64,000 bases of DNA, from NCBI RefSeq assembly GCF_024223415.1, contig NZ_CP100500.1. The stretch is one strand, 5' to 3'. Numbering within the stretch: position 1 is the first letter of the stretch; each line of letters starts with the position of its first letter. Both the position numbers and the translations under genes were made by a program. Origin of the DNA: Escherichia coli (GTDB lineage: Bacteria > Pseudomonadota > Gammaproteobacteria > Enterobacterales > Enterobacteriaceae). The notes under the pieces were generated by a model that made no database searches, had not been told where the DNA came from, and was given only the letters and a program-made list of their open reading frames with translations. Positions 10,464 through 53,876 of the stretch are shown here, one piece after another.

Positions 10464-11596
<1,133 letters not shown>

Positions 11597-11606
11597 GGAG
11601 CCTGAG

Positions 11607-13162
<1,556 letters not shown>

Positions 13163-28190: not shown

Positions 28191-28296
28191 CAGAAACACA
28201 GAAAAGAAGCGATTTGCCGCAATCTTAAGCAGTTGAATCGCTTTTACTGAAATTAGGTTGACGAGATGTGCAGATTACGGTTTAATGCGCCCCGTT

Positions 28297-28372
28297 GCCC
28301 GGATAGCTCAGTCGGTAGAGCAGGGGATTGAAAATCCCCGTGTCCTTGGTTCGATTCCGAGTCCGGGCACCA
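28297..28372 (+). tRNA. pheU: tRNA-Phe (anticodon GAA), pheU-type
   Basis: 76-nt cloverleaf GCCCGGATAGCTCAGTCGGTAGAGCAGGGGATTGAAAATCCCC...GGTTCGATTCCGAGTCCGGGCACCA with encoded CCA; sits where pheU lies relative to yjdC. Confidence 0.97.
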
Positions 28373-28381
28373 AATTCATAT

Positions 28382-28409
28382 AAACGGACCTCCACGGAGG
28401 TCCGTTTTT
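28382..28409 (+). terminator. Rho-independent terminator after tRNA-Phe
   Basis: aaacggacctcc-acgg-aggtccgttttt hairpin with T-run. Confidence 0.8.
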
Positions 28410-28569
28410 CGTTTCAGGACGCCACGATTTAAGCGTCCTGCCGCCAAATCAATTCTACCGAACTCAACCAGACTCCCCCCACATCAACCCCATTGTGTGG
28501 GTATAATTGCGGGTATACCCCAGTTCGACAGAATTTGTACCCTCTTTAACGCATTCAGAAGGCTGAACT

Positions 28570-29832
28570 ATGGCACTGACTGACGCAAAAATCCGGGCTG
28601 CAAAGCACACTGACAAGGCTTATAAACTCACTGACGGGGCTGGCATGTTCCTGCTGGTACATCCTAATGGTTCCCGTTACTGGCGTCTCCGTTATCGCAT
28701 TCTGGGTAAGGAGAAAACTCTGGCACTTGGTGTATACCCGGAGGTTTCTCTCTCCGAAGCTCGTACAAAACGGGATGAGGCCCGAAAACTGATTTCGGAG
28801 GGGATTGACCCTTGCGAACAGAAAAGAGCTAAAAAAGTAGTCCCTGATTTACAACTCTCTTTTGAACATATTGCACGACGCTGGCATGCCAGTAATAAAC
28901 AATGGGCACAATCACACAGCGATAAGGTACTCAAAAGCCTCGAAACACACGTTTTCCCCTTTATCGGCAACCGGAACATCACAACACTCAATACCCCGGA
29001 CCTGCTTATCCCTGTTCGTGCTGCAGAAGCTAAACAAATTTATGAAATCGCCAGTCGTCTGCAGCAAAGAATATCTGCTGTAATGCGTTATGCCGTACAG
29101 TCTGGCATCATCAGATATAATCCTGCTCTGGATATGGCTGGCGCATTGACTACGGTAAAACGCCAGCATCGCCCCGCTCTTGATCTTTCTCGCCTGCCTG
29201 AACTTTTGTCGCGTATTGGCAGTTACAAGGGGCAACCTGTCACCCAGCTTGCCGTTATGCTGAATTTACTGGTTTTTATTCGTTCCAGTGAACTCAGATA
29301 CGCCCGCTGGTCTGAAATTGATATTGACAATGCCATGTGGACTATTCCAGCCGAACGCGAACCCCTGCCAGGCGTAAAATTCTCACACCGGGGCTCCAAG
29401 ATGCGAACACCACATCTTGTGCCACTCAGCAAACAGGCTGTAGCCATACTGACAGAACTACAGACATGGGCTGGTGAAAATGGTCTGATCTTTACGGGAG
29501 CACATGACCCGCGTAAACCAATCAGTGAAAATACTGTAAATAAAGCCCTGAGGGTGATGGGGTATGACACAACCCAGGATGTCTGTGGCCATGGATTCCG
29601 GGCGATGGCGTGCAGTGCATTGATTGAATCAGGTTTGTGGTCCCGCGATGCTGTGGAACGTCAGATGAGCCATCAGGAGCGTAATGGTGTACGTGCTGCG
29701 TATATCCATAAAGCAGAACATCTGGAAGAACGTCGACTGATGCTACAGTGGTGGGCAGATTTTCTGGATGCGAACAGAGATAAGGGTATCAGCCCGTTTG
29801 AATATGCAAAGATTAACAATCCATTAAAATAG
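28570..29832 (+). CDS. int: P4-type tyrosine integrase (island integrase)
   Basis: 420 aa; N-terminal MALTDAKIRAAK...YWRLRYR typical of P4-like integrases; C-terminal catalytic region with R...HGFR...Y; first gene 3' of tRNA-Phe. Confidence 0.9.
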   Translation: MALTDAKIRAAKHTDKAYKLTDGAGMFLLVHPNGSRYWRLRYRILGKEKTLALGVYPEVSLSEARTKRDEARKLISEGIDPCEQKRAKKVVPDLQLSFEHIARRWHASNKQWAQSHSDKVLKSLETHVFPFIGNRNITTLNTPDLLIPVRAAEAKQIYEIASRLQQRISAVMRYAVQSGIIRYNPALDMAGALTTVKRQHRPALDLSRLPELLSRIGSYKGQPVTQLAVMLNLLVFIRSSELRYARWSEIDIDNAMWTIPAEREPLPGVKFSHRGSKMRTPHLVPLSKQAVAILTELQTWAGENGLIFTGAHDPRKPISENTVNKALRVMGYDTTQDVCGHGFRAMACSALIESGLWSRDAVERQMSHQERNGVRAAYIHKAEHLEERRLMLQWWADFLDANRDKGISPFEYAKINNPLK

Positions 29833-30097
29833 TAAGCAGTCCGGGCTGATTGCCCGGACTGCTTTAACTGATTATTTTTCTTTGTAAATGATGACGAAGA
29901 TTGATGTTCTGGCAAGTTACTCCGGCTTCCATTAAAGTCCCTTCGTCATGTTCTTCAGGCTATTTATGACTGTGATTAGCACCAGGAATATCTGGTTTCC
30001 ATGAGAGCAGGTAATAACCCCCGGTGTTTTCGGCTGTTCTGGTATCCTTGTCCAACACAGGCAGTCATTATAAACGGTAAAAAATGTGGATTTGCCC

Positions 30098-31003
30098 CTA
30101 TATTTCCAGACATCTGTTATCACTTAACCCATTACAGGCCCGCTGCCGCAGATATTCCCGTGGCGAGCGATAACCCAACGCACTATGCGGATGCCATTCG
30201 TTATAATGCTCGAACGCCTCTGCAAGGTTCTTTGCTGCCGTTAACCCGTCTGGTTTGGGCATGACACTGATGTAGTCACGCTTTATCGTTTTCACGAAGC
30301 TCTCTGCTATGCCGTTACTCTCCGGACTCCGCACCGCCGTGTTCTTCGGTTCAAGCCCCAACATCCGGGCAAACTGCCGTGTTTCATTAGCCCGGTAGCA
30401 TGAACCATTATCCGTCAGCCACTCTACTGGAGACGCCGGAAGCTCGTTGCCGAAGCGGCGTTCCACCGCTCCTGGCATGACGTCCTGTACTGTTTCACTG
30501 TTGAAGCCGCCCGTAGTGACCGCCCAGTGCAGTGCCTCACGGTCACAGCAGTCCAGCGCGAACGTGACTCGCAGTTTTTCTCCGTTATCACAGCGGAACT
30601 CGAACCCGTCAGAGCACCATCGCTGATTACTTTCTTTCACAGCCACTCTGCCGGTATGTGCCCGTTTCGATGGCGGTACAGCGGTTTTTCGCTCAAGCAA
30701 CAGCGCATTCTGGCGCATGATCCGGTAAATACGTTTGGCATTGATCGCAGGCATACCATCAAGTTCTGTTTGTCTGCGAAGCAGCGCCCATACCCGACAA
30801 TAACCATATGTGGGTAGCTCTCCGATAACATGGTGTATACGGCGAAGCACATCCGTATCATCCGTGTGACGGCTGCGGCGGCCGTCCTTCCAGTCATCGG
30901 CTCGTCTGAGAATGACGTGCAACTGCGCACGCGACACCCGGAGACAACGGCTGACGAAGCTTACTCCCCATCCCCGGGCAATAAGGGCGCGTGCGCTATC
31001 CAC
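30098..31003 (-). CDS. insD: IS2 transposase InsD (OrfB)
   Basis: 301 aa, near-identical to recalled IS2 InsD ([34 protein letters not shown]...). Confidence 0.92.
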
Positions 31004-31326
31004 TTTTTTGCTCGCCCATATTCAACGGCTTCTTTAAGGAGTTCATTTTCCATCGTTTTTTTGCCGAGCAGACGCTGGAGTTCTTTAATCTGCTTCATGG
31101 CGGCAGCAAGTTCAGAGGCAGGAACGACCTGTTCTCCGGCAGCCACAGCAGTAAGACTTCCCTCCTGGTATTGCTTACGCCAGAGAAATAGCTGGCTGGC
31201 TGCCACACCATGTTGCCGGGCAACAAGGGAGACCGTCATTCCCGGTTCAAAGCTCTGCTGAACGATAGCGATCTTTTCCTGTGTAGTACGCCGTCTGCGT
31301 TTCTCCGGCCCTAAGACATCAATCAT
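30961..31326 (-). CDS. insC: IS2 InsC (OrfA, HTH regulator)
   Basis: ORF trimmed to Met ([26 protein letters not shown]...), 121 aa; overlaps insD as expected for frameshift fusion. Confidence 0.9.
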
Positions 31327-31543
31327 CTGTTCTCCAATGACTAGTCTAAAAACTAGTATTAAGACTATCACTTATTTAAGTGATATTGGTTGTCTGGAGA
31401 TTCAGGGGGCCAGTCTAAAATGTATTCACTGTTATGAAATCAATAGTTCTGACGTACTGTTGAATGTGCTTGCGTTCTGAACCTTGTACAACCAGTACAT
31501 TTGATACCGAATTATAAACAAAACATTGCATCCAACTTTTTCA

Positions 31544-31566
31544 ATATGGACAATAGTTGTCCATAT
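31544..31566. promoter_or_regulatory. Perfect 10-3-10 palindrome (operator-like) in leader of helicase-nuclease gene
   Basis: atatggacaa-tag-ttgtccatat, perfect inverted repeat 54 bp upstream of the ATG at 31620. Confidence 0.4.
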
Positions 31567-31619
31567 GGTGGTTTTATATTCGATAAATCAATGGATTTCA
31601 TTGAGTCATAGGACTGGTA

Positions 31620-34600
31620 ATGGATGAAAATGCTTTAGGGTTTGCCTCATACTGGCGCAACTCGCTTGCGGATGCTGAGTCAGGAAAGGGCAGTTTTGAA
31701 CGGAAAGACGCCAAAAATTTCACTCATTGGCATGGGATAGCGGCGGGACGTCTTGACGAAGCGATTGTCAGTAAATTTTTTAAGGGAGAAAAAGACGATG
31801 TCGAAACGGTCGATGTCATCTTGCGCCCAAAAGTTTATTTCCGGTTACTGCAGCATGGTAAGGACCGTTCTGCAGGTGCGCCTGATATTGTTACCCCGAT
31901 AGTGACGCCAGCCTTGCTAAGCCGTGAGGGTTTTTTATATCCGACGCCAGCGACCTCCATTCCCAGAGACCTGCTTGAACCTTTGCCAAAAGGAGCATTT
32001 TCGATTGGTGAGATTGGGCAGTATGACAAATACAAGACGACCCATACCACGTTCTCTATCAACTTTGATGACAGCGTTGATAAGACTGCCGAAACGCATG
32101 AAGAACGGGAAGCACGATATGCCGCCTTGCAGCAGGAGTGGCGTCAATATCTGTATGACTCAGAGAGGCTACTGAAGAGCGTTGCCAGCGACTGGATTGA
32201 AAAACCTGAGCAATATGAACTCGCTGAGCACGGTTATATTGTTAAAACGGCGCAATCTGGCGGTGCCAGTTTCCATATCCTTTCTCTTTATGATCACCTG
32301 CTTGTTTGCAATAAGGATGTGCCGCTCTTCAATCGATTCGCCTCGCGAGAGGTTCATGCTGCAGAGTCTTTGCTGGCCCCTGGAGCAAAATTCAGCGACA
32401 GGCTTGGACACTCCGGAGATAAGTTTCCGCTGGCAAAGGCTCAGCGCGATGCCTTAAGCCATTTTCTGGATGCTAAACATGGCGATATCCTTGCTGTTAA
32501 TGGCCCTCCTGGAACCGGAAAAACCACGCTGGTGCTTTCTATCATCGCCACGCAGTGGGCCAGAGCGGCTCTCGAAAAATCTGAGCCTCCGGTTATTATC
32601 GCGACTTCAACGAATAACCAGGCTGTAACGAACATTATTGAGGCATTCGGGAAAGACTTTTCGCAAGGTTCAGGTGCGATGGCCGGGCGATGGTTGCCAG
32701 AGCTGAAAAGCTTCGGCGCTTATTTTCCCTCAAGCAGCCGTAAAGCTGAAGCAGCCAAAAAATATCAAACTGAAGATTTCTTCAACCAGGTTGAGTCAAA
32801 AGAGTATGTAGAAGATGCACTGCTGTTTTATCTGGAAAAGGCTAAGGCAGCCTTTCCTGAAAAAGAGTGTTCATCCCCTGAAAAGGTCATTGAACTCCTG
32901 CATGGTCAGTTGGCAGCAAAATCCGAGCAACTGATAAGACTGAACGCAACATGGCAAACGTTAAGCCAGATTCGGGCTGCGCGTGAGCTTATTGCTAATG
33001 ATATTGAGCAATATCTCAATAATTTAAATAAATTACTTTCCGGACAAGAACAAAAAATCACTCTACTGAAGAGTGCTAAAACGGAATGGAAAAAATATCG
33101 CGCCGGTGAATCACTGATCTATTCATTATTTTCCTGGCTTCCGGCGGTTCGCAGTAAGCGACAGTACCAAATACAGCTGTTTCTCGAAGATAAATTAGGT
33201 GCGCTGATTGCAGGAAATCAATGGTCTGATCCTGAAACTATCGAAAGTAATATTGATGGGCTGCTCAATTCCGCTGAGCGCGAGCAAACAACATACCGGC
33301 AGCAGATTGACTCCGCCCATGAAATCATTCTTAAAGAACAGCAGGCGGTTCAGGAGTGGCAGAGACTGGCTCTTGATTTAGGGTATGAGGGCGACGAGGA
33401 ACTGAGCTTCTCACAGGCCGATGAACTGGCTGATACGCAGATTCGCTTCCCTGCATTTTTACTGACGACTCACTACTGGGAAGGTCGTTGGCTGATGGAT
33501 ATGGCCAGCATTGATGATCTGCAGGAAGAGAAGAAGAAAAAAGGCGCTAAAGGGGTAACCGCCCGTTGGCAACGTCGAATGAAACTCACTCCATGTGTGG
33601 TGATGACATGCTATATGCTGCCCGGCAATATGCAGATAAGTGAGCACAAAGGACAGCGTAAATTCGAGAAAAGTTATTTGTATGATTTTGCCGATTTACT
33701 CATTGTCGATGAAGCCGGGCAGGTGCTTCCTGAAGTGGCTGCTGCCTCGTTTGCATTAGCTAAGAAGGCATTAGTGATTGGCGATACGGAGCAGATCCCG
33801 CCAATATGGAGTATTGCTCCTGCGATTGATATCGGTAACATGCTGGCGGAAAAAATTCTGTCTGGCAGTACGCAAGAAGAGATTACCGAGAAATATACGG
33901 CAATCGCAGACCTTGGTAAAAGTGCCGCATCTGGCAGCGTTATGAAAATAGCGCAGTTTGCTTCGCGCTATCAATATGATCCCGAACTGGCTCGTGGTAT
34001 GTACCTATATGAACACCGCCGGTGCTACGACAATATTATTGGATACTGTAATACGCTCTGCTATCACGGTAAGTTGTTGCCTAAAAGAGGGCGTGAAGAG
34101 AGCAATTTAATGCCCGCAATGGGGTATCTCCATATTGATGGTAAAGGAGAGCTGGCAAGTAGTGGAAGTCGATATAATTTGCTTGAGGCTGAAACGATAG
34201 CGGTCTGGTTGGCAGAGAACCAGCAAAATATTGAAGCGCATTACGGTAAATCGCTTCATGAAGTTGTCGGTATTGTGACGCCTTTTAGCGCTCAGGTATC
34301 CACTATCAAACAGGTGCTGGGCAAACAAGGTATCAGTACAGGCACGAATGAAAAGTCGCTCACAGTGGGCACCGTGCACTCTCTTCAGGGAGCGGAAAGA
34401 GCGATTGTGATATTCTCGCCAGTCTATTCAAAACATGAAGACGGCGGGTTTATTGATAGCGATAACAGCATGCTGAATGTTGCAGTCTCCCGTGCGAAGG
34501 ACAGTTTTCTGGTCTTCGGCGATATGGACCTGTTTGAGGTCCAGCCAGCCTCATCGCCACGGGGATTACTGGCAAAATACCTCTTTGAGTCAGAGAAGAA

Positions 34601-35135
34601 TGCGCTCTCTTTTGATTATAAAGAGCGTAAGGATTTAAAAACCGCCGGGACCAAAATCTACACACTTCATGGTGTGGAGCAACATGATAATTTCCTGAAT
34701 CAGACATTTGAAAATACCAGTAAACACATCACGATAGTTTCTCCATGGCTGACCTGGCAAAGGCTGGAGCAAACCGGTTTTCTTGATTCCATGATTGCGG
34801 CGTGTTCACGTGGAATTAACGTCACGATAGTCACTGACAGAAGCTACAACACTGAACATAATGATTTTGAGAAGCGAAAAGAGAAGCAGCAGAACTTTAA
34901 AGCGGCGCTGGAGAAACTGAATGCGCTGGGTATTGCTACAAAGCTGGTAAACCGTGTTCATAGCAAAATTGTTATTGGTGATGATGGTTTGCTGTGCGTG
35001 GGATCGTTCAACTGGTTTAGTGCGACACGGGAAGCGCGATATGAACGATACGATACATCAATGGTTTATTGCGGTGATAACCTGAAGGGTGAGATTGAGG
35101 CTATTTATAATAGTCTTGAGAGGCGGCAGGTTTAG
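31620..35135 (+). CDS. Superfamily-1 (Upf1/DNA2-like) helicase fused to C-terminal PLD-family (HKD) nuclease domain; candidate single-gene defence protein
   Basis: 1171 aa. Walker [10 protein letters not shown] (nt 32502-32528, aa 295-303); Walker B/motif II DEAGQ (nt 33708-33722, aa 697-701); SF1 motifs [18 protein letters not shown] and [16 protein letters not shown]; C-terminal HSKIVIGDD...GSFNWF = HxK(x4)D(x6)GSxN PLD signature (nt 34959-35030). About 290-aa N-terminal region and about 390-aa insert between Walker A and B have no motif I recognise. Confidence 0.75.
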
Positions 35136-35243
35136 AGCAGGAATGGTGAGTAGCCATCTTACCGATCGTTTTCGAGCGTAAGATGGCTGAATGGAATGGC
35201 TATTATTGCACAGTCCTTAATTATAACATTCATACCGACATGA

Positions 35244-36743
35244 TTATCTTCTGTCCGGAAGAATCAGAGGCTGTGGTTTCAGACTGTCTGCCGGTACATT
35301 CCTGTCTCCGTTAAAAACAATAACGGGTTCATTATCTTCGTCTGTCAGCGGATTGAATGGCGGTATATTTTCAGTACGAATGCCGGTCAGCCACTGAAAA
35401 ATACCTGCGAAATGACGGGCACTGATTTTTCTGCTGACGGACTGATGAGACGTGATGTCACTGGCGGTAATAATCAGGGGAACGCTGTAGCCTCCTTGTA
35501 TATGGCCATCATGATGAACAGGATTAGCACTGTCGCTGACCGACAGACCATGGTCAGAAAAGTAAAGCATGGCAAAATGACGGGAGTGCCGGCGAAGGAT
35601 ACCATCAAGCTGACCGAGAAAGTTATCCAGTTTACTGATGCTGGCGAGGTAACAGGCAATCTTTCGGGGATACTGCTCCAGGTAATGATTCGGCCAGGAG
35701 TTAAGTCGGTCACACGGATTCGGATGAGAGCCAATCATGTGCAGGAATATCACCTTCGGAGAGGATTTATCCGCCAGTGCACGTTCTGTTTCCTGTAACA
35801 ACAACATGTCATCCGTTTTACGGGAAGCAAAGCTGCCTTTCTTGAGGAAAACGGTATGCTCCGCATCAGAAGCAATAACAGAGATGCGTGTATCATGCTC
35901 CCCCAGTTTTCCCTGATTGGATATCCACCATGTGCTGTATCCTGCTTTTGCTGCCAGCGCCACCACGTTGTTGCCGGAGTCAGGGTTCTGCTCATAGTCA
36001 TAAATCAATGTCCGGCTCAGGGAAGGTACGGTACTGGCTGCTGCCGATGTATAGCCGTCAATAAATAAACCGGGAGCCGTATTCAGCCATGGTGTGGTTG
36101 GCACGGGATAGCCATATACCGACATATAATCCCTGCGCACACTCTCACCAGTAACGATAACAATCGTGTCATACAACGGTGTTCCCGGCAGGATTTTCCA
36201 GTTGTCAGCCCCGTGCTGACTCAGTTGTTTATAACGCTGCATTTCACGCAATGTGTCAGTTGTTCCCACAACAATTCCTTTAACCATCCGCAACGGCCAG
36301 CTGTTTACAGAGCATAATACGAACAGCAGCAGTGCCAGCCAGTTACGGTGACCGCGGTGGTGTGTCCGCCAGAAAATCACCATGAATACCAGAATCGCGG
36401 CACTGACCAGAAAATGATAAACAGGAATCATCCCGGTAAACTCTGCAGCCTCATCAGCCGTGGTCTGCAGCAACGCGACAATAAAACTGTTGTTGATTTT
36501 ACCGTACGTCATACCCGCAGGCGCATACAGTGCACAACAGAACAGAAATAACAGCGTTGTAATGGATGTGAGGGTATTTCTGTGTGCAAGGAGCAGAAGG
36601 AGAAACAGAAGCAGCACATTTCCTGTGGCATTCTTCTCAGTGTATCCGCATGCAATTGTGATTATCACAGAAATAACAAAAAAGAATAAAAACAATAAAA
36701 TCCGGGGTGTGTCGCCCGGACAAAACAGTTTTCTGATATTCAT
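35244..36743 (-). CDS. Sulfatase-family inner-membrane protein, probable phosphoethanolamine transferase (YhbX/YbiP/OpgE-like)
   Basis: 499 aa; N-terminal multi-TM region then periplasmic domain with alkaline-phosphatase-superfamily motifs (VTGESVRRDY, HMIGSHPNPCD, YFSDHG); AT-rich flanks. Confidence 0.6.
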   Translation of the reverse strand: MNIRKLFCPGDTPRILLFLFFFVISVIITIACGYTEKNATGNVLLLFLLLLLAHRNTLTSITTLLFLFCCALYAPAGMTYGKINNSFIVALLQTTADEAAEFTGMIPVYHFLVSAAILVFMVIFWRTHHRGHRNWLALLLFVLCSVNSWPLRMVKGIVVGTTDTLREMQRYKQLSQHGADNWKILPGTPLYDTIVIVTGESVRRDYMSVYGYPVPTTPWLNTAPGLFIDGYTSAAASTVPSLSRTLIYDYEQNPDSGNNVVALAAKAGYSTWWISNQGKLGEHDTRISVIASDAEHTVFLKKGSFASRKTDDMLLLQETERALADKSSPKVIFLHMIGSHPNPCDRLNSWPNHYLEQYPRKIACYLASISKLDNFLGQLDGILRRHSRHFAMLYFSDHGLSVSDSANPVHHDGHIQGGYSVPLIITASDITSHQSVSRKISARHFAGIFQWLTGIRTENIPPFNPLTDEDNEPVIVFNGDRNVPADSLKPQPLILPDRR

Positions 36744-36924
36744 CGGAGTATATCGACAACATTATTATGAAGAGAACAGGATAATAAAAATCAGAAATTA
36801 TCTGTAAAACAGATAACAGACAACCCTGCAGCAATAGACTGCAGGGTGTTTCTGTTTAATTGCAGAAGATATACAATTATATTAATTACAGAATATTCGT
36901 GATTATCTCTCAGGAACAGTGTTG

Positions 36925-37665
36925 TCAGAAGTTATAAGTCACACCAAGCATGATGTCATGACTTTTAACATCAACTTCTGACTTATATTTATCGCCCCAC
37001 TCGTCCTTGTAACTCACACTGCTGTCACCTGCATCAAGATAGCGATAGCTGAGGTCCAGAGCGATATCCGGGGTTACGTCATAGCGGACACCCGCGCCAA
37101 GGTTCCATGCGAAGTTGTCAGCAGAGCCTGAACGTGACAACGATTCGCGACCACTGCTTCCGTACTCATAATCCCAGGTACTGATACCGGTTGTTTTCTG
37201 GTGAATTCTGGCGTAGCCAATCCCTGCAGATATCCAAGGTGTGAATGCGCTGTCATTCCGGAAGTCATAGTACGCATTCAGCATTAGTGTGTTGACTGAC
37301 ACCTCATTCTTCAGGTCATCACGCCAGTAACCACCTGACCAACTGTCTTTATCTACGTTATACTTCGAATCAGCTTTTCCACGAGCGTAAAACTCCAGTT
37401 CTGTACGAACCGGAATACTGAACTGCGGATAAAAATCATAACCAGCCGCGATACCACCACTGAATACCGTATCATGGTCATCGCCGCCTTTATACTTTGA
37501 CGTTTCTTCCTCATCTCCTGACAGGAAACGCTGGTCTGAAAGTGACACCACAGAGGTACCGGCTTTACCGGTCAGATAAAAACCGCTTTTACCTTCCTCA
37601 GCACCTGCATTTGCTGCAAATACACAGGCTGCGGCCACCACTGAAACAGCAAAAACCTTTTTCAT
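36925..37665 (-). CDS. Outer-membrane beta-barrel protein, MipA/OmpV-like
   Basis: 246 aa; signal peptide MKKVFAVSVVAAACVFAANA, alternating amphipathic strands, C-terminal ...GVTYNF with terminal Phe; resembles MipA family but unverified. Confidence 0.5.
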   Translation of the reverse strand: MKKVFAVSVVAAACVFAANAGAEEGKSGFYLTGKAGTSVVSLSDQRFLSGDEEETSKYKGGDDHDTVFSGGIAAGYDFYPQFSIPVRTELEFYARGKADSKYNVDKDSWSGGYWRDDLKNEVSVNTLMLNAYYDFRNDSAFTPWISAGIGYARIHQKTTGISTWDYEYGSSGRESLSRSGSADNFAWNLGAGVRYDVTPDIALDLSYRYLDAGDSSVSYKDEWGDKYKSEVDVKSHDIMLGVTYNF

Positions 37666-37741
37666 TTCAATTATCTCCGTTATTGCTCCGTTGCTGCAAG
37701 CAGTACTCAGTGCATTTTAAAACCCGCCATGCGATAGCCTC

Positions 37742-37782
37742 AATCGAATAAAATCGATCGAATCGATCGATGATATCGATCG
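37742..37782. repeat. Short tandem/palindromic ATCGATCG repeat tract
   Basis: caatcgaataaaatcgatcgaatcgatcgatgatatcgatcg: three or four copies of atcgatcg immediately upstream of the MipA-like gene. Confidence 0.6.
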
Positions 37783-38152
37783 TCATTAACCAGAAATTTT
37801 TATCGTATTCAGTCAGCACAGACACAACAAATGCATGCCATGCAGGCAGCCATGCCCCGTCGCGACAGATGGTAGCAGTGGGCTGGCGAAGAGCAGAATT
37901 AATAAAATTTGTTTATTCTGTCAGGAGATAAGGTGTCACCTGTTCATGAACACAATTAAGGAAGAGACATACATGAGCTGACTGGCAGTCCAGAGTGCAT
38001 GCGGTTACAAGCCGGAAAGGTGAACCGGTATAACCAGTGAGCAGAGTTTGTGAAGGGGGGATATAAAAAAGCCCACTGCATGGCAGCGGGTAAAGAGTCA
38101 GTTATTTCCGGCGTTTTTCAAGGTAGTTGTCGCCTGATGTAATAAAATTACG

Positions 38153-38524
38153 TTATGCCGCTTCTTTTTCTGGATTCAGATAAACTGCCTGAATGAGTTC
38201 CCAGTCACGCAACTGTTTGCTCCAGCGCTCAGGATGACGCTTGCGAGCTTCGCGATAAACTTTTTTTCTGGCTTCCAGTATTTGTGCATCAATTCCGCGA
38301 TGGCGTTCATCCGGAGTAACATACTTAATACCGCTGTGCTTGTGTTCCAGGTTGTACCATTGCGTGAACTTGCTTAACCAACTTCTGGCTTCATCTATGG
38401 TTCGAAAACCATTCTCCGGCCACCATGAACAATACTTAATCGTCCGGAAGAGCGATTCGGAATAAAGAAGTGTTACTGGCAGTTCTTTCATCGCATCAGT
38501 GAAAACCAGCAGGGCACTGCTCAC
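38153..38524 (-). pseudogene. Transposase C-terminal fragment (DDE integrase core, IS3/IS481-like)
   Basis: 123-aa ORF with ...WYNLEHKHSGIKYVTPDERHRG... typical of transposase C-termini; lacks N-terminal domain. Confidence 0.45.
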
Positions 38525-38942
38525 CAGAGCAACACAGGAAAGTGAACCCGAACAAAAGTTCCTGTACCATTTTCTCCCAGCAGACGTGAGGCTTGTTCCA
38601 GTGACTCTGGTATACGTCCCAGCCGGACATCAAGTGCGCCGATGGCTATTGCCTGAAATCGCATCGTACAGCAAATCACCAACAGGACACCGACAGACAT
38701 TAAAGGTAACCCCCTGTAATCCAGTAGTTCCGACAGCCAGCGGTCATTTAGGGAGTCAGAAAACCAATCGCCAGAATCGTGCCCGGAAAGGCATAACCCA
38801 GCGACGCCACTCTCATCACACCGCGCCTGAACAGTGGCATAGCGTTGAGGAATTCCGGGCATTCCAGACTACGAGCAGACTGACAAAAATTACGACAAAG
38901 CGTTGAAGGAAGCCAGCGCGCGGACTGACAGGACTTTACCAT
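38521..38942 (-). pseudogene. ABC-transporter permease fragment (ThiP/FbpB-like), frameshifted
   Basis: Two overlapping short ORFs containing permease-like segments LGYAFPGTILAIGFLTP and ...IPESLEQASRLLGENGTGTFVRVHFPVL; far too short for an intact permease. Confidence 0.35.
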
Positions 38943-38991
38943 AAAAACACAGGCTAACCGCGCCTGCGTTTTTAATGACGGATAAACAGAA

Positions 38992-40971
38992 TCAGGTGCC
39001 GATTATGCCGCCGTCGGCTTTTACGATAACGACAGTTGAGGAGCGCGGACGACCAGCCTTATCGCCGTCAGGCCAGCTTGATACTGCCGTCGGATGCTGC
39101 GGATCGCTAAGCCCTTCGCTTGGCTCGCCAGGGTGCTGGATGTTAATAAACAGCGTCCGGTTATCCGGAGTGAACGCGATGCCGGTGATTTCGCAGCCGC
39201 GCGGGCCGGTCAGGAAGCGGCGGAACTCATTGGTACCGGGGATCGTCGCCACCATCTGGTTGTTGCCCATGCCTTTGTAATCTTTAATATTTATGGTTGA
39301 TGACGACACGTCGGTCTGGATCCATAGCACGCCGCGGTGATCGAAGCTCAGGCCATCGGCGCTGCCGAATTCCGCACCCTTCATGCTGCCTTTGGTTTCC
39401 GGTTTGTCTGTATCGGTGCGACCGCCCATCACAAGAATATCCCAGGCAAACTGCAGCGCGGTCGGGTCACCGTTATGCTCCAACCAGTGAATGATGTGGC
39501 CGTAAACGTTTTTGGCGCGCGGGTTGGCCGCATCCACTGGCGCTTTTCCTTCCGTACCGCGATCGCTGTTGTTGGTGAGCGTGCAGTAAACGCTGCCGGC
39601 GTGATATGGATCGACCGCAATCCACTCCGGGCGGTCCATTTTAGTGGCCCCCACGGCGTCTGCCGCCAGACGGGTTTTAATCAACAGGTCGCCCTGGTTT
39701 TCAAACCCTTTACTGGCGTCGAGCCCATTTTGTCCGAACACCAGCGGTAGCCACTCGCCTTTGCCGTCGTCGTTAAATTTCGCCACGTACAGAGTGCCTT
39801 TTTCCAGCAGGTGCATGTTGGCTTTGCGATCCTGCGGGTTGAATTTTCCTTCCGAGACAAATTTATATATGTATTCGAATTTCTGGTCATCGCCCATATA
39901 GACCACAACGCGGTTATCCGGGGCAATTGTCACCGCTGCGCCTTCGTGTTTGATGCGACCAAGCGCGGTGTGCTTGCGCGGCACTGAATGCGGATCGTAT
40001 GGATCGATTTCCACCACCCAGCCGAAGCGGTTCGGCTCGTTCGGCGTGGCGTCGACGCTGAACCTTTTATCCACTTCGTTCCAGCGGTAAGAGTCGTCGC
40101 TCCCGCTGATACCGTAACGTTTTTCCAGCGGGTTCATCTCTGCTTTTTTTACGAAAATATCGGACCAGTTCTCTTCACACGTCAGATAGGTGCCCCACGG
40201 CGTAAATCCGTTGGCACAGTTCTGCATGGTGCCGAGAATGATTTCGCCTTTCGGATCGTCAACTGTTTGCATCAGTGGGTTATGCAGCGCCGGACCGGTG
40301 ATTTTCATCGGCGTGTTAACGGTGATGCGGCGTGCGAACGATGACGGGCGCACCACTTCCCAGCCCAGGGGCACTTTTTTTACTTCAATGACCGACACGC
40401 CCATCGCGTTCTGGCCTTTAAGAGCTTTATCGGCGCTCCAGTTGGCATCGCCATCTTTAAACAGTAGACCGTTATCGATGTATTCATGGTTTATGGCAAG
40501 CAGGCCGTGATCGGAGCTGTTCCCGCCCTGCGGCAGGCTAAACCACGCCATGCCGTCGTGGTGCATCCCGGCCTGCGCCGCCTGTTCTTCCGTGGTGTTG
40601 CTACCGTCGGTTTTAAAAACCGGCAGATTTCCGGCAATCCCGGTGGCGTCGCCCCATTTGTAGAAGGGCTTCGCGATGTATCCTTCCGGCACGATAACGG
40701 TATCTTCCGTGGAAACCGGCAGGCTGGTGAAACCGAGCGTCGTCGCTTTGCCGAGGTTACCGCTTGCTTTGGAGACCACTTTCGCCAGCGCGTTTTCCTG
40801 TTTCAGCAGAAATGGGAACGCTGCCGCGGCACCGGCGACCGTGCCTGCCTGTAACAGACGGCGGCGTGACAAATAGACTTCCGCCACCTGCGAAAACGCG
40901 CGGTTATCGCTCGGGTTACTGATTTCTTCACTATGCTCACGTTTGAATAAAGTTTTTAACGGTCTGCCCAT
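38992..40971 (-). CDS. Tat-exported PhoX-family alkaline phosphatase (DUF839-like)
   Basis: 659 aa; twin-arginine signal SRRRLLQAGTVAGAAAAFPFL; length and composition as recalled for PhoX family; not part of K-12 core. Confidence 0.6.
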   Translation of the reverse strand: MGRPLKTLFKREHSEEISNPSDNRAFSQVAEVYLSRRRLLQAGTVAGAAAAFPFLLKQENALAKVVSKASGNLGKATTLGFTSLPVSTEDTVIVPEGYIAKPFYKWGDATGIAGNLPVFKTDGSNTTEEQAAQAGMHHDGMAWFSLPQGGNSSDHGLLAINHEYIDNGLLFKDGDANWSADKALKGQNAMGVSVIEVKKVPLGWEVVRPSSFARRITVNTPMKITGPALHNPLMQTVDDPKGEIILGTMQNCANGFTPWGTYLTCEENWSDIFVKKAEMNPLEKRYGISGSDDSYRWNEVDKRFSVDATPNEPNRFGWVVEIDPYDPHSVPRKHTALGRIKHEGAAVTIAPDNRVVVYMGDDQKFEYIYKFVSEGKFNPQDRKANMHLLEKGTLYVAKFNDDGKGEWLPLVFGQNGLDASKGFENQGDLLIKTRLAADAVGATKMDRPEWIAVDPYHAGSVYCTLTNNSDRGTEGKAPVDAANPRAKNVYGHIIHWLEHNGDPTALQFAWDILVMGGRTDTDKPETKGSMKGAEFGSADGLSFDHRGVLWIQTDVSSSTINIKDYKGMGNNQMVATIPGTNEFRRFLTGPRGCEITGIAFTPDNRTLFINIQHPGEPSEGLSDPQHPTAVSSWPDGDKAGRPRSSTVVIVKADGGIIGT

Positions 40972-41393
40972 TGCGGTTTCCTTTCAAAAAATCGATTTCA
41001 AGGGGAATCATTTTTATGCACGTGAGTCTACGGAAAGATTGTTACGGAAATATAACAATTGTCATAAAAAACCGGCGATAAAATCATCTATGGTCGGGAC
41101 GCGGTTTCAGGTATGATGTGAGGCTAGAATTCTGAACGCTCTCTTTTGTTGAGCATATATGGACGTCCCGGGTGAGGCAAGTACTGGTTCGATGCGGTTT
41201 GCGACCATATATCCGGCGTCGTTAGTAGGTTCAATGACCTGCGCCATGATGTTATCCGGGCCCTATTTCCTAATCACTACACCGGTATTTGATTACCCAG
41301 GTCAACTTCAGACTGTTACAGGGGCGGTAGCCGTTATCTCATCAGTGAATGTAAACTCAGTTAAAAATATTTTCTATAACTTACTGTTTTTAT

Positions 41394-41603
41394 TTAATTC
41401 ATCACAACGGCCTTCTGCATATTAAAATCAATACTATCGCTCAAAACACGCCAGATGATTCTTGTCAGCTTGTTCGCCAGCGCACCAGTGGTTTTCAGGA
41501 ACCCTCGACGGGCTTCCATCCTTTGCAGACAAATACTCAGACTGTCAGTGAGCTTTTTCACACAGCGCATTACAGACTGAAATGGCACACTGAATTTGGT
41601 CAC
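41394..41603 (-). pseudogene. Transposase C-terminal fragment (IS110-family-like)
   Basis: 69-aa ORF ending ...ALANKLTRIIWRVLSD..., resembling IS110-family transposase C-termini. Confidence 0.3.
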
Positions 41604-41649
41604 CTGAACAGAGGTGATATGCTCACCTCAGAACAAGACTGGTGCCCTA

Positions 41650-42350
<701 letters not shown>

Positions 42351-42356
42351 CTAGCT

Positions 42357-42393
<37 letters not shown>

Positions 42394-42732
42394 TAATTAC
42401 ACTGTGGGTTGACGCCGGAAGAATCAGAGAACAGATACCGTTCTTACTGTAAAACGTGGCTAATATTAATTGAGCACTGCAGTGTTCAGAGCACAAAGAA
42501 GAAAAAAGATGTGTGCGAATGCCTGTAATGTGTTAAAAGAATGTTCCGCGTTTCCGGTACGCTTTTCGTAACTAACAATGCAGGGTGACGTAACGCTGGT
42601 TGTGCCGGAAACGCGTCCCTCCCCCTATCTTTCCTGTTTGGATTTGCCCCTATATTTCTGGATTATCCGACAAAACCGGCGTGAAGTATTACTCTCGTCG
42701 CCCAGCACCATAAGGATAACGCCCATAAAATC

Positions 42733-43098
42733 ATGAAACTTTTCTTCCAGATTGGATACAATCAGGCCGTATCCCGTATTACAGGCTTATCACGTGTGAC
42801 AGTCAGTCTCTGGGTGTGTTCAGGAACATTCCCTGAAATGTCAACCCGGCCTCCAGAGCGAGGACTTCTGGACCCATGGAGGGAGTGGTTAAAAGAGCAA
42901 CGAGAAAGTGGTAACTTCGGCGCGTGGCTGCAAGGATGGCAGCTGATGCTGCGGCTATATGTGAGGCAATCAGCAGTCGCTGGAATAATGGGGGTTGTCG
43001 AAAGTCATGTAAATCGACTAAAAATGCTGAAAGGCCAGATGTATGGTCGAGCCGGATTTGAACTACTCAGGCAGAGGGTCATGAGTCCACTGGCATGA
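42733..43098 (+). CDS. Hypothetical protein with AlpA-like HTH N-terminus
   Basis: 121-aa ORF; N-terminal ...AVSRITGLSRVTVSLWVCSGTFPE resembles AlpA-family phage/ICE regulators; weak. Confidence 0.3.
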   Translation: MKLFFQIGYNQAVSRITGLSRVTVSLWVCSGTFPEMSTRPPERGLLDPWREWLKEQRESGNFGAWLQGWQLMLRLYVRQSAVAGIMGVVESHVNRLKMLKGQMYGRAGFELLRQRVMSPLA

Positions 43099-43306
43099 AA
43101 ATCTCCATCCAGGTTGCGTAAGAGCCACTTTTCATCCGTCGTCGATATCTGGGATAGCCATAGTGAAATAAAAAGCTGTCTGAATTAAATTATTTTGCAC
43201 ATATATTTTAATCCTGCACTGAATTAAGAATGGGTAATCAGTGACCGCTTGGACGGTCACTTTTAAGAGAAGGCATTAACAGAGAATGGTAAACAGGCTC
43301 AATATA

Positions 43307-43757
43307 TTATGTTGTTGGCACTACAGATGAATGATGGGATGATATTTTCCAATCCTTTCCATCCCACTCATAAGCGAAACTATAGCGTGCTGAAACTTGT
43401 TTTTTATCTTCAAAAGTAAACGTGTAATTCCCTGTATCAAGAGCCATATTGCATCCAATGCGAATAGTTCTGAAGTTTATTTCTCCAACAGTTTTTTTTT
43501 CAAAAAATGCTCAAAATAGTCAACTCTTTCTGCATCTGTAATCCTAATTTTTTTTGATACTGTGGGCAGTAAGATCGCATCACTTAAATAGTTATCAGCA
43601 ACCTTCTTGGCATCACCTGTTTTTAATGATTCATTCCAGCGATCGAATAACCTTTCAATGTCTTTACTATCTACCCGAATACACTTAACATTATCTACGT
43701 CACTTGCCCACGACGCTCCAGAAAACAGACACAGAATTAAAATATTTATTTTTTCAT
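43307..43757 (-). pseudogene. Small secreted NTF2-like (SnoaL/DUF4440-like) protein gene interrupted at two homopolymer tracts
   Basis: AGGAGG then ATG at 43755-43757 followed by A6 and immediate stop; +1 frame encodes signal peptide KINILILCLFSGASWASD...; second shift at A9 tract (plus-strand T9, 43492-43500); restoring A7 and A10 gives about 150-aa ORF ending ...WDGKDWKISSHHSSVVPTT. Confidence 0.5.
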
Positions 43758-43991
43758 AACTCCTCCTGATCAGCCTGAAACTTTTTTAAAGTTTAATCAT
43801 ATTAATACAGTGCAACTATTTGATAGTAAAAACGATGTTCTCTATTTTGTTAATAGATACTTCCTATTGTGTATATATTATGAGATTATTAAGAATAATA
43901 CTCTCTGGGTCGTAGAGACAGGGTATAAGTCACAGGCTGGTGTGGTTCGGATGTTCTTGCCCCCTCAATATCAGACTGCTATTGTATCTTA

Positions 43992-44370
43992 AGTTAACGT
44001 TATCCGCTGACGTCGATATTCCCGTGGTGAGAGATAACCTAACGCACTATGCGGATGGTTTTCATTGTAATGCTCGAACGCCTCTGCAAGGTTATGCAAT
44101 GCCGTTATTACATTCAGTTTCGGCATGAACGCGATGTAGTCTTCATTCACGTTTTCACGAACCTTTCTGCCATTCTATTGCTCTGAGGGCTACTGACTGC
44201 CGTCGTGCAGGGCTCCAGATTCAACTCTCTGGCGAATTGCCGTGTTTCATGAGCCGTATAAGCCGAACCGTTATCCGTCCGCCACTGGATTGCTCGTTCC
44301 GGTCCTTTATCGCCAAAGCGTTTTTCTATCGCTCCTAACATCACATCCTGCACTGTCGGCTTTATCGTAA
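43992..44370 (-). pseudogene. Diverged IS2-group 3' fragment (partial InsD-like orfB plus terminal repeat)
   Basis: About 80% nucleotide similarity to the IS2 3' region at 30120-30520; encodes ...[45 protein letters not shown] similar to InsD. Confidence 0.7.
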
Positions 44371-44655
44371 CCTCCCGTACTGGTCACGGGCAGACTGTTC
44401 ATCATGTTAAACCCAGCCGCTGTCAGATCATGCACCGGCCGGATGGCGGGCTGACCTGCCCCGCCGCGCTGCTGCCCGCCAATCCATTTCTTACCTTCCT
44501 TCCCGGTGGCCTGACGTCCGGCCTCGTCCCCTTTCACCGCATCACCGTCACCGCTGTTCACCACCTTCTTGTACTCTTCCAGCATCGCTGGCCTGCGTCC
44601 ATTTGCTGCGATCAGAAAAGTCCATCATCCGTTTTGCCATGTTCTGGCAGTTCAG

Positions 44656-45117
44656 TTACGCCTTGTCGAAAGCCACATTCGCCTGCAGCACACCGTTGGT
44701 GATCATGTCGTACAGGCCGGGGTTGGCACGCTGTATCACCATCGCCGGCAGACTGGCAGCGGCGCCGGTCGCCCCCTGAATCACATCCCCCATCAGATTT
44801 TTAAAGCCGTCGGTCAATCCGTTAAGATGATTACCCACCGTGGTCTTCAGGTCAAAGTTGCCGCACATCAGATCGCTGCTCCAGCCCAGGTCCATACCCA
44901 GCTTCTGCATGTTGCTGCGCGTGGCCAACTGTGAGATCACCGAGCCGCCACCCAGCGTATAGAACAGTTTGTCGGATACGGCGCCATCCACGGATTTCCC
45001 GTAACCGAACGTGCTGTCATTCAGTTTCGGCAGGGAAAGAAGATCAGCCATCGCCGGAATACTGCAGTACAGCATCACACTCAGTGCCACCATACCTGTT
45101 TTCATCTTCATCATCAT
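44656..45117 (-). pseudogene. Conjugative-element transfer protein fragment (TraH-like?), 3'-truncated
   Basis: 153-aa ORF with signal peptide MMMKMKTGMVALSVMLYCSIPAMA; reading frame breaks downstream and abuts the IS2-like fragment; family assignment tentative. Confidence 0.3.
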
Positions 45118-45123
45118 GGTTCC

Positions 45124-46098
45124 TTAAAAATTCGTACTGCCAAGGAATCGCTGCCCGCGCTTTTCGAAGCAGCTGTAAGGCTGCCACAGTGCAAAGGCTG
45201 CATTACCGTTCTCCGCTGCCTGGTGTTCACCATCCGGGAAAACGGCACAGGAACGCGACACTGACGGCGTCAGTCGCTGCCATTTGTGATTGCGGGTGCC
45301 GGTGTTTTCCTCCACCGCCTCCGGGGGCCACTAGCCGTCACGTTTCACGCCCTTAACCTCCCTGTAGACATGCGACTCCCCCATCCGCGTGATAATGTCG
45401 GCCACCCGCTGAGCCCCCACCGCCGCGGCCCGGTCATCATCGGTCTGCATCACAAAACCACTCCGGTGATAAACGCTCCCCCACATGTTTTTATCGGCCT
45501 AGCTGCCAATCTCGCGTTTGCCGGGAACCTGTGCCTCTGGATACAGGGATTCAGGTAATCCCGTTCGCTAGACGATGCTGTCCAGGGTACTGAGGAAATA
45601 GGCCATGGCCGGTGTCACCGGTGAATCACAGCTGAATCCGGGTACCATCCCGCCGATAAGCTGTGTGGCCGGATGACCCAGCGCATCTGCGTATTTGAAA
45701 CGAATGGCTGAACGGCGCTTCCCCTGTATTTTCATATCCGCCGGATTTCCCCCGCCGGCACTCAGCCCGGACAGGCCGTCAGTGATGGCATTCTCCGGGC
45801 CACCTGCGGTCCGGCTGACCAGCGACATCTCTTTCCAGGGATTACCACCCGGTGCCGTATAGGTGGAAATAACCACTTCCGGGATGAAATGTGTCACCTT
45901 CACGGAAATTCTGACCGTACAGCCAGACGCGCTGCAGTAAAGCCAGTAACAAATCCCGCTGACACGCCAGCTGATATAGTCCGGTGCCGCAGTACTGGCG
46001 ATAATGCTGGCGGTGTTCAGTGATACAGACGCCAGGGGCAGTGATGCCACACTCAGTAACAGCACGCCGGTACGCAGACGACATTTCAGGGACATCAT
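45124..46098 (-). pseudogene. Conjugative-element transfer protein (TraU-like?) split by frameshifts/stops
   Basis: 176-aa N-terminal ORF with signal peptide and Cys-rich segment (ICYWLYCSASGC), continued in other frames to about 45124; total about TraU size. Confidence 0.3.
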
Positions 46099-46211
46099 GG
46101 CTGCACTCCTCCCTCAGCACGGATTTTCCCGGCCATCACCACATCCATGGTGCCGTAAACCACCTCACTGTCATCAAACACCACGGCAGGGTATTTCTTC
46201 ACGCCCAGCGA

Positions 46212-46490
46212 CTAGGCATGTGCCACATCGCGGTAATGACCGGCCAGTTCCGCCTGCATCGTCTGCCATTCGGGAGACTTCATACGTACCCTGACCACCG
46301 ATTCAGCCTCACCCGCATCAGCAGGCAACAGGCCCCAAAAGCGGCTCTGAAGCTGCTCAGGCGCATCCAGCAGAACCACCCTGACACCATCAGGAGGATT
46401 AACGGGAAGATGCTGAGAATCGGTATAAATTGTTGTGCCGGCAGACGCTGCCAGCGGCAGGAAAAACAGGGAACAGAAAATCCGGTACAT
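46212..46490 (-). CDS. Small secreted protein of conjugative-element remnant
   Basis: 92-aa ORF with signal peptide MYRIFCSLFFLPLAASA; upstream of the TraU-like fragment on same strand. Confidence 0.3.
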   Translation of the reverse strand: MYRIFCSLFFLPLAASAGTTIYTDSQHLPVNPPDGVRVVLLDAPEQLQSRFWGLLPADAGEAESVVRVRMKSPEWQTMQAELAGHYRDVAHA

Positions 46491-46686
46491 CGCACGCTGT
46501 CAGTCAGATATTATCTGACTGACAGCGTGCGAAGAAAGCGCTCATTTATCAGCAATAAATTAAAAACGGGATTAAAAAATTACGGTGGGATCCGGGGAAG
46601 TGTATCTGCCAAGCATAACAGACAGTCTGTGATTATACCCGGCCTTTCACAAAGCCGGGGAACTGATTCATACCAAGTGGTGATTT

Positions 46687-49512: not shown

Positions 49513-49561
49513 ATCTTCTCTCCGATTATATTAATCAGAGAGAAGATAAACAAACGCAAGA

Positions 49562-49580
49562 GATAATGAGAATGATTTGC
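49562..49580. promoter_or_regulatory. Fur box upstream of iha-like receptor
   Basis: gataatgagaatgatttgc, 15/19 match to Fur consensus GATAATGATAATCATTATC, about 50 bp upstream of the receptor start. Confidence 0.65.
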
Positions 49581-53870: not shown

Positions 53871-53876
53871 TAGTCA

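Follow-up and report, generated by a model that had tools for sequence, protein, structure and literature searches.

The window, a 64,000-nucleotide stretch of Escherichia coli DNA, carries an integrase-bearing island inserted at a tRNA-Phe gene (Table 1). This tRNA gene follows dcuA, dsbD, and yjdC/dicD (identified with NCBIfam) and is therefore pheU. A 100%-identical copy of the helicase–nuclease gene described below, located beside yqgA in strain E41, had suggested pheV as the site, which was ruled out by these 3 upstream genes; in E41, the same island occupies pheV, with 99.93% identity over 26.9 kb. Downstream of the integrase and an IS2 element lies an intact open reading frame (ORF) on the plus strand (31620..35135), which begins with ATG, ends with TAG, and has its nearest in-frame 5′ stop codon at 31602. 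The encoded protein of 1171 residues has a computed mass of 131.5 kDa and is labeled “AAA domain-containing protein” in RefSeq. We refer to the gene as mkoC.

Table 1. Features of the pheU island around mkoC and domains of the encoded protein, in window coordinates.
Feature	Position	Strand	Basis
tRNA-Phe (pheU, 28297..28372) and P4-type integrase (28570..29832)	28297..29832	+	ARAGORN; NCBIfam
IS2, 1331 bp, between the integrase gene and mkoC, with 5-bp target duplication AAATG (context only)	30087..31417	-	NCBIfam IS2 TnpA/TnpB, empty-site comparison, junctions
Native upstream region kept, 202 bp, including the IS2 target-site duplication (31418..31422)	31418..31619	+	Collinearity with strain L26, whose locus is IS-free
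N-terminal domain, residues 1–270, mixed α/β, specific to the MkoC family	31620..32429	+	
RecA1, first part, residues 271–345, Walker A GPPGTGKT (K301)	32430..32654	+	Pfam AAA_11 and AAA_30, conservation, AF2 model
Helical insert in RecA1, residues 346–658	32655..33593	+	AF2 model; in all full-length homologs
RecA1, second part, residues 659–776, Walker B DEAGQ (697–701), motif III GD (721–722)	33594..33947	+	Pfam AAA_11 (679–729), invariant or near-invariant residues
RecA2, residues 777–985, with Q923, R927, and R958	33948..34574	+	Pfam AAA_12 (2.2e-21)
PLD nuclease domain, residues 1012–1171, single HKD (H1114, K1116, D1121), GSxN (1128–1131)	34653..35132	+	Pfam PLDc_2 and PLDc, residue conservation
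Allele-variable patch in the N-terminal domain, residues 141–195	32040..32204	+	Codon differences, density of variable sites

An ORF and motif check bore out the 1171-residue ORF described in an earlier note on this DNA, along with all the motifs listed there, namely Walker A (GPPGTGKTT, residues 295–303) and, approximately 394 residues further on, Walker B, 2 more helicase motifs of 15 residues each (residues 918–932 and 954–968), the HKD stretch HSKIVIGDD (residues 1114–1122), and GSFNWF (residues 1128–1133). The pattern HxK(x)4D occurs exactly once in the chain, at residue 1114, as that note had also claimed. Its proposal of an SF1 Upf1/Dna2-like helicase fused to a PLD nuclease is confirmed by Pfam matches to AAA_11 (residues 272–492 and 679–729), AAA_12 (residues 777–969), and PLDc_2 (residues 1028–1138; 1.2e-9). 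Across 65 homologs, K301, D697, E698, H1114, K1116, and D1121 are invariant or nearly so, and the Walker A lysine and the catalytic residues of the HKD motif are all intact in the window protein.

The protein consists of an N-terminal domain, an Upf1-like SF1B helicase in which RecA1 is split by a stalk and followed by RecA2, and a C-terminal PLD domain. When the whole AF2 model (pLDDT 93.1, pTM 0.88) was aligned by Foldseek, the best fold matches were SETX, UPF1, IGHMBP2, Aquarius, Sen1, and Dna2, with E-values of 1e-16 to 1e-11 yet only 11–15% identity to these eukaryotic helicases. No solved Mokosh structure turned up in a search for one; sequence matches in the PDB were limited to Upf1-family helicases (SETX, UPF1, and DNA2) and covered RecA2 alone. 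Comparison of MkoC with UPF1, SETX/Sen1, IGHMBP2, Aquarius, and DNA2 revealed that (i) all are built on a RecA1/RecA2 core whose RecA1 domain carries inserted accessory domains; (ii) in the model, the MkoC insertion is an all-helical stalk much larger than its eukaryotic counterparts; (iii) the MkoC nuclease is a C-terminal PLD domain, whereas that of DNA2 is of the PD-(D/E)xK type; and (iv) the MkoC N-terminal domain is unrelated to these helicases. The region between Walker A and Walker B, which had been described as a 390-residue insert lacking a recognizable motif, is predicted to be a long helical stalk of approximately 310 residues that splits RecA1 (helices at residues 420–458, 462–496, 508–530, 538–586, and 597–630). 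Residues 1–270, part of the first 290 residues that had been described in the same way, matched no solved structure and form a domain found only in MkoC-type proteins, with the conserved motifs YWRNSLAD (residues 11–18), IPRDLLEP (residues 114–121), and LYD (residues 223–225). Both the first 290 residues and the insert of approximately 390 residues are conserved throughout the MkoC family.

The PLD domain gave partial profile matches to PADLOC MkoB and DrmC and to NCBIfam NucT, those to NucT and DrmC being weak. It shares one HxK(x)4D motif and GSxN with Nuc/NucT, BfiI, Zucchini/PLD6, and DISARM DrmC, all of which are single-HKD PLD nucleases and obligate homodimers. Unlike these enzymes, MkoC has its PLD domain tethered to a helicase.

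The protein matches the PADLOC MkoC profile PDLC03924 over its full length (1693.5 bits, E = 0; residues 1–1169 against positions 1–1135 of 1136), which bears out the earlier naming of type II Mokosh as the nearest architecture. It is identical to WP_000344089.1 of E. coli PCN033 at 1134 of 1171 positions (96.8%) without gaps. The founding member of the type, the 1171-residue MkoC of E. coli 5-366-08_S1_C1, is listed as SG150 “Mokosh type II” and marked “v” for verified (Millman et al. 2022, Table S2). Over the 399 residues printed in that table, the SG150 protein is 96.0% identical to the window protein and 100% identical to the PCN033 protein; the comparison with SG150 thus covers residues 1–399, and we infer the identity beyond residue 399 through the PCN033 protein. 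The suggestion of a distinct or unclassified variant does not survive the full-length profile match and the approximately 97% identity to the verified E. coli MkoC. Judged by its sequence, the gene is real and already known: it is an ordinary allele, at approximately 97% identity, of mkoC, which by itself constitutes the type II Mokosh system. The length of 1171 residues, the domain order, and the catalytic motifs are all shared with SG150 MkoC/EcMokosh II, and the truncation boundary A995/L996 used by Ragucci et al. (2025) fits the numbering of the window protein.

As in other MkoC proteins, one polypeptide carries a COG1112/Upf1-like SF1 helicase N-terminal to a PLD nuclease. By contrast, type I Mokosh comprises 2 genes, the kinase-helicase gene mkoA and the separate PLD gene mkoB; the window protein has no Ser/Thr kinase domain by Pfam, and its N-terminal domain differs from that of MkoA. 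The likeness to type I is confined to the shared modules, with MkoA matching residues 692–974 at 1.9e-36 (MkoA profiles as a group are confined to residues 692–994) and MkoB matching residues 1011–1138 at 8.7e-17. The trigger and evasion data for type I (the SECphi27 protein, T4 Alt, and DNA glucosylation) are not transferable to the window protein. The gene appears to act without MkoB or any other obligatory partner gene, as the earlier note had supposed in calling it a stand-alone defense gene: there are no PADLOC matches among its neighbors (IS2, a phosphoethanolamine transferase, an outer-membrane protein, and PhoX), its flanks vary between loci, and mkoC is the sole gene in the 3903-bp verified clone of SG150 (Millman et al. 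2022).

Of the genomic context previously described, the pheU island, the integrase, and the IS elements are all present, but “typical defense island” overstated the case, since the tested island ORFs yielded no other PADLOC defense gene. A PADLOC match to DrmD in the island was a false positive, which NCBIfam assigns to the IS21 helper ATPase IstB. The island bears virulence cargo and is not a cluster of defense systems.

At both pheU and pheV, mkoC comes directly after the P4-type integrase while the other cargo differs, and this integrase–mkoC module recurs with differing downstream cargo in APEC O1, O104:H4, and L26. This fixed place beside the integrase would be accounted for if MkoC mainly served the island, by excluding rival plasmids and ICEs or by processing island DNA, rather than acting against phages. 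Purified EcMokosh II nicks plasmid DNA, and its measured phage range is very narrow, confined in one panel to the ssDNA phage SECphi17 (Ragucci et al. 2025). We nevertheless consider such a main role highly improbable. MkoC on its own, removed from the island, protects E. coli from phage (Millman et al. 2022); mkoC of PCN033, in contrast to that of the window, adjoins restriction genes away from any tRNA-Phe integrase; and MkoC homologs are encoded on plasmids and across many phyla with no such integrase alongside. Anti-plasmid activity would be an added role, not a replacement.

The window locus also differs from the PCN033/SG150-type locus by the IS2 inserted 202 bp upstream of mkoC, which could alter expression of the gene. 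IS remnants lie downstream of mkoC, IS fragments and pseudogenes crowd the remainder of the island, the pheU copy of mkoC in O104:H4 C227-11 is frameshifted, and copies in other genomes are IS-interrupted or truncated; the window copy might likewise have fallen silent or lost its function, as a relic of an island in decay. Several observations make this very unlikely. The ORF is intact, equals the verified protein in length, and keeps its catalytic residues, and the exact protein is present on 354 public contigs. IS2 is oriented away from mkoC, and within the 202 bp of native upstream sequence, approximately 157 bp can be aligned with the upstream DNA of the functional, promoter-bearing clone of Millman et al., the last approximately 130 bp being nearly identical. 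A scan of these 202 bp found no sigma-70 promoter-like site, and a terminator scan found a palindrome with a 10-bp stem (31544..31566). Comparison with PCN033 gave 69 synonymous against 37 non-synonymous codon differences, an excess that points to purifying selection on mkoC overall. Of 5426 complete E. coli genomes, 888 carry the gene.

The 37 substitutions that set the window protein apart from the PCN033/SG150-type protein are concentrated in the variable patch of the N-terminal domain, where 10 non-synonymous and 3 synonymous differences were found, as against 27 and 66 in the remainder of the gene. Across 9 alleles, variable sites are also most tightly packed in this patch, a window that was picked post hoc. 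Because these substitutions separate the window protein from the tested type of allele and 10 of them cluster here, the phage range of the window allele could differ. One speculative reading, to which we give a low probability, is that the N-terminal 270-residue domain is an infection sensor or the target of a phage inhibitor, with the helix at residues 141–195 under an arms race and alleles differing in the phages that they stop.

Published work on E. coli type II Mokosh gives the mechanism its outline. Mutations in the helicase ATP site (Walker A) and in the PLD active site (HKD) abolish Mokosh defense (Millman et al. 2022); cloning with the native leader and mutation of both motifs have thus already been done on a near-identical allele. 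EcMokosh II is a monomer in solution (approximately 138 kDa by mass photometry), cuts only ssDNA among the substrates tested, a panel without RNA, and still cleaves in vitro when Walker A or Walker B is mutated (Ragucci et al. 2025). The in vitro and in vivo results do not coincide, the ATPase motifs being required for defense and dispensable for ssDNA cleavage. Among the papers that we searched, none beyond Millman 2022 and Ragucci 2025 was dedicated to the mechanism of type II Mokosh.

We consider it very probable that the locus as a whole is best explained as mkoC, a one-protein type II Mokosh system that is the first cargo after the integrase of the pheU island and acts as follows. The helicase module would engage single-stranded nucleic acid exposed during infection, candidate targets being ssDNA phage genomes or their replication intermediates and possibly phage RNA or RNA–DNA hybrids, and the PLD domain would then cut the single strand and block phage replication. 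ATP-driven translocation may select or reach the targets in the cell, and the N-terminal domain may serve sensing or regulation. The window allele would be expected to act like the characterized E. coli protein, to which it is approximately 97% identical, including in phage protection.

Among the candidate targets, RNA deserves separate consideration, since the discoverers' hypothesis predicts RNA substrates (Millman et al. 2022). MkoC could be a surveillance nuclease of the Upf1 or MOV10L1/Zucchini kind acting on phage transcripts, its ssDNA cleavage being a side activity in vitro. The closest solved folds are indeed those of the RNA helicases SETX, UPF1, IGHMBP2, and Sen1, structural alignment pairs the fused E. 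coli Mokosh with MOV10L1 and PLD6, and RNA was absent from the published substrate panel. However, the sole activity measured is ssDNA cleavage, the lone phage restricted in the panel has an ssDNA genome, and the same helicase family includes Dna2, an enzyme that acts on ssDNA; we therefore regard RNA as an unlikely main target.

For cleavage of ssDNA by the PLD domain, the earlier note had held that one HKD motif would require dimerization. This is reasonable by analogy with other PLD nucleases, yet the E. coli protein, unlike the homodimeric single-HKD enzymes, was measured as a monomer and still cleaves ssDNA. A monomer with one HKD motif is unusual for a PLD nuclease. A canonical active site with two HKD motifs may arise when two PLD domains meet on the substrate.

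Type II Mokosh has carried its name since 2022 and was already cloned, mutated, and partly characterized biochemically, so that the copy described here has little discovery value; standard defense finders would label it at once, and the practical gain is a corrected annotation only. The details that are new here, namely the N-terminal domain, the helical stalk, the variable patch at residues 141–195, the IS2 upstream, and the virulence cargo, are all minor. The broader questions, about the role of the N-terminal domain, the cleavage of ssDNA by a monomer with a single HKD motif, and the need for ATP binding in the cell but not in vitro, concern the whole MkoC family rather than this locus. Modestly useful is the finding that mkoC is a conserved, integrase-proximal passenger of the pheU/pheV pathogenicity islands of avian and extraintestinal E. 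coli.

The profile, sequence and domain comparisons below concern the 1171-aa protein MkoC and its gene mkoC. Type II Mokosh was defined as one gene whose product has an Upf1-like helicase at its N-terminus and a PLD nuclease at its C-terminus, and Mokosh defence is abolished by mutations in the ATP site and in the PLD site (Millman et al., bioRxiv 10.1101/2022.05.11.491447). SG150, the verified type II example, comes from E. coli 5-366-08_S1_C1 and consists of a 3903-bp fragment whose single gene encodes a 1171-aa MkoC (Table S2, bioRxiv 10.1101/2022.05.11.491447). Comparison of the window protein with these references revealed that (i) the MkoC profile of PADLOC matched it with E = 0 and 1693.5 bits, aligning residues 1–1169 with positions 1–1135 of the 1136 in the profile, and the type I profiles MkoA and MkoB covered just the helicase core and the PLD domain; (ii) it differed from SG150 at 16 of the 399 residues printed in Table S2 (96.0% identity); (iii) these 399 SG150 residues were 100% matched by the first 399 of WP_000344089.1 from E. 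coli PCN033, to which the window protein could be aligned over its full length without gaps (1134/1171 positions matching); and (iv) the last ~130 bp upstream of mkoC were nearly identical to the cloned SG150 fragment, with alignable sequence extending to about 157 bp. The profile match and the near-identity to SG150 and PCN033 identify the gene as an allele of the founding MkoC and not a separate variant class. The earlier note had recognized type II Mokosh, which stands; its alternative of a distinct or unclassified variant does not. The feature is real, was described correctly and is the canonical type II Mokosh gene, validated by experiment and already known; RefSeq labels its product just "AAA domain-containing protein".

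The reading frame runs from ATG to TAG over 1171 codons with no interruption, and an in-frame stop lies 18 nt 5' of the ATG. All motifs quoted in the earlier note were found at their claimed positions, both the helicase and the nuclease halves are supported by Pfam domains, and exactly one HxK(x)4D motif is present, as claimed.

Features of the window and of MkoC
Feature	Position	Strand	Remarks
tRNA-Phe (pheU)	28297..28372
P4-type integrase	28570..29832
IS2	30087..31417		1331 bp; AAATG target duplication; transposase genes point away from mkoC
mkoC	31620..35135	+
Phosphoethanolamine transferase (CptA/EptA-like, distantly MCR-like) and Adr/Tia-like outer-membrane protein	35244..37665	-	directly 3' of mkoC
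AmiC (cell-wall amidase) paralogue	58141..59400	-	NCBIfam, 792.6 bits; amid IS110 and IS3 fragments
GPPGTGKTT	aa 295-303
DEAGQ	aa 697-701
15-residue motif	aa 918-932
15-residue motif	aa 954-968
HSKIVIGDD	aa 1114-1122
GSFNWF	aa 1128-1133
AAA_11	aa 272-492 and 679-729		Pfam
AAA_12	aa 777-969		Pfam, 2.2e-21
PLDc_2	aa 1028-1138		Pfam, 1.2e-9
N-terminal domain, mixed alpha/beta	aa 1-270		AlphaFold2 model
RecA1, two pieces	about aa 271-345 and 659-776		AlphaFold2 model
All-helical insertion splitting RecA1	helices aa 420-458, 462-496, 508-530, 538-586, 597-630		AlphaFold2 model; helices of 23-49 residues
RecA2	aa 777-985		AlphaFold2 model
PLD domain	aa 1012-1169		AlphaFold2 model

An AlphaFold2 model of MkoC, based on 65 homologues, was confident (pLDDT 93.1, pTM 0.88). 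Its Foldseek matches in the PDB, SETX (1e-16), UPF1, IGHMBP2, Aquarius, Sen1, Dna2, nsp13 and ZNFX1, place the modelled protein among the Upf1-like SF1B helicases. These helicases typically have accessory domains inserted in RecA1, and the version in the MkoC family is enlarged. The 390-aa insert that had been reported as unrecognized corresponds to this insertion; taken together, the model and the fold matches indicate that both regions regarded as unrecognized, the N-terminus and the insert, are standard MkoC features.

The tRNA-Phe gene is preceded by dcuA, dsbD and yjdC/dicD and is therefore pheU, as the earlier note had it. IS2 lies between the island integrase and mkoC, leaving 202 bp of native DNA before the mkoC ATG; it is also present in strain E41, whereas the L26 locus, collinear in other respects, lacks it. 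Among the ~44 genomes with the island module, most reach only ~91% query coverage, consistent with a lack of IS2 there. In avian-pathogenic strains, the pheU/pheV islands retain the two genes directly 3' of mkoC together with it, and the cargo farther downstream comprises a PhoX-family protein, iha, ICE remnants and many IS fragments. SMS-3-5 and E41 have the AmiC paralogue in their equivalent islands as well. Among the tested island ORFs besides mkoC, PADLOC models gave no match except a spurious one to DrmD of DISARM (1e-34; 61264..62010, minus strand), which was rejected as the protein is the IS21 helper ATPase IstB; such matches probably give rise to false-positive defence calls. The "typical defence-island context" was thus overstated: the island carries virulence and fitness cargo and a single defence gene, not several clustered defence systems.

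The integrase–mkoC pair heads the pheV island in E41, which is 99.93% identical to the window over 26.9 kb (window 28249..55133), so both identical tRNA-Phe genes serve as attachment sites. The pair also heads the pheV island in APEC O1, with tia and pap, and the pheU island in the 2011 outbreak strain O104:H4 C227-11, whose mkoC (9001..12517 of locus L004) is annotated as frameshifted. Some other genomes carry mkoC copies that are broken by ISEc52 or IS1, or truncated. PCN033 has mkoC at another site, where its neighbours are an HNH endonuclease, a restriction endonuclease, a TIR pseudogene and a type I R-M system.

The intact frame, the retention of all catalytic residues and the mostly synonymous differences from PCN033 mkoC (69 synonymous, 37 non-synonymous; rough dN/dS near 0.2) point to a functional window copy. 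Residues 141–195 (32040..32204) depart from this pattern, with 10 non-synonymous and 3 synonymous differences from PCN033, compared with 27 and 66 elsewhere in the gene; the Fisher p of 0.0013 is optimistic because this segment was picked post hoc. It is also the densest run of variable sites among nine full-length alleles, and the L26 allele, 99.6% identical, differs at 10 amino acids, 7 of them within residues 160–195. Diversifying selection acting on a recognition surface might account for this hypervariability, as might a small patch of recombination. A perfect palindrome with a 10-bp stem (ATATGGACAATAGTTGTCCATAT, then GGTGGTTTTA; 31544..31566) lies 54 nt 5' of the mkoC start and may act as an operator or leader hairpin; the upstream DNA of the functional SG150 clone has an imperfect version.

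By megablast, mkoC is present in 888 of 5426 complete E. coli genomes (78 at ≥99% identity, 805 at 95–99%), chromosomally in every case; a separate, independent survey arrived at 975 Mokosh II instances for E. coli. Exact copies of the protein are encoded on 354 public contigs, and at 90% identity it belongs to a cluster of 2941 distinct members. Among 1.84 billion representative proteins, 1142 matched at E ≤ 1e-30, including dozens of full-length homologues at 31–52% identity; homologues are also found on plasmids of Agrobacterium, Vibrio, Pseudomonas and other genera. Relatives of ~970–1030 residues (P0029, P0036, P0038, P0039, P0040, P0047, P0048) align to MkoC residues 1 to ~996 and lack the PLD domain; they may belong to split systems, or the helicase may be paired with a different effector encoded nearby.

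Nuc, BfiI and Zucchini are the basis for reading a single HKD motif as a sign of dimerization. By contrast, apo EcMokosh II, whose operon Ragucci et al. took over from the discovery paper, was measured by mass photometry as a monomer of about 138 kDa (bioRxiv 10.1101/2025.07.10.664194); two PLD domains might pair on the substrate. The calculated mass of the window MkoC is 131.5 kDa, and the truncations of Ragucci et al., M1-A995 and L996-end, fit its numbering exactly. EcMokosh II cuts ssDNA substrates only and also nicks plasmid, its in-vitro cleavage is unaffected by Walker A or Walker B mutation, and in the tested panel it defended only against the ssDNA phage SECphi17 (bioRxiv 10.1101/2025.07.10.664194). 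Based on these in-vitro data and the in-vivo ATP-site requirement of Millman et al., the most likely mechanism is one in which the helicase module would find or track along single strands exposed through infection, which the tethered PLD domain would then cut; translocation would thereby have a role in defence, and the N-terminal domain may be sensory or regulatory. RNA is a possible cellular target: it was put forward by the discoverers (Millman et al., bioRxiv 10.1101/2022.05.11.491447), is in keeping with the MOV10L1/PLD6 parallel, and was not part of the published EcMokosh II substrate panel (bioRxiv 10.1101/2025.07.10.664194). Mokosh II provides stand-alone defence needing both active sites and is specific for ssDNA in vitro (bioRxiv 10.1101/2022.05.11.491447; 10.1101/2025.07.10.664194), properties that would be expected to carry over to the window allele. 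Questions about the N-terminal domain, a monomeric nuclease with a single HKD motif, and ATP dependence in vivo versus in vitro concern the MkoC family in general and are not specific to this locus.
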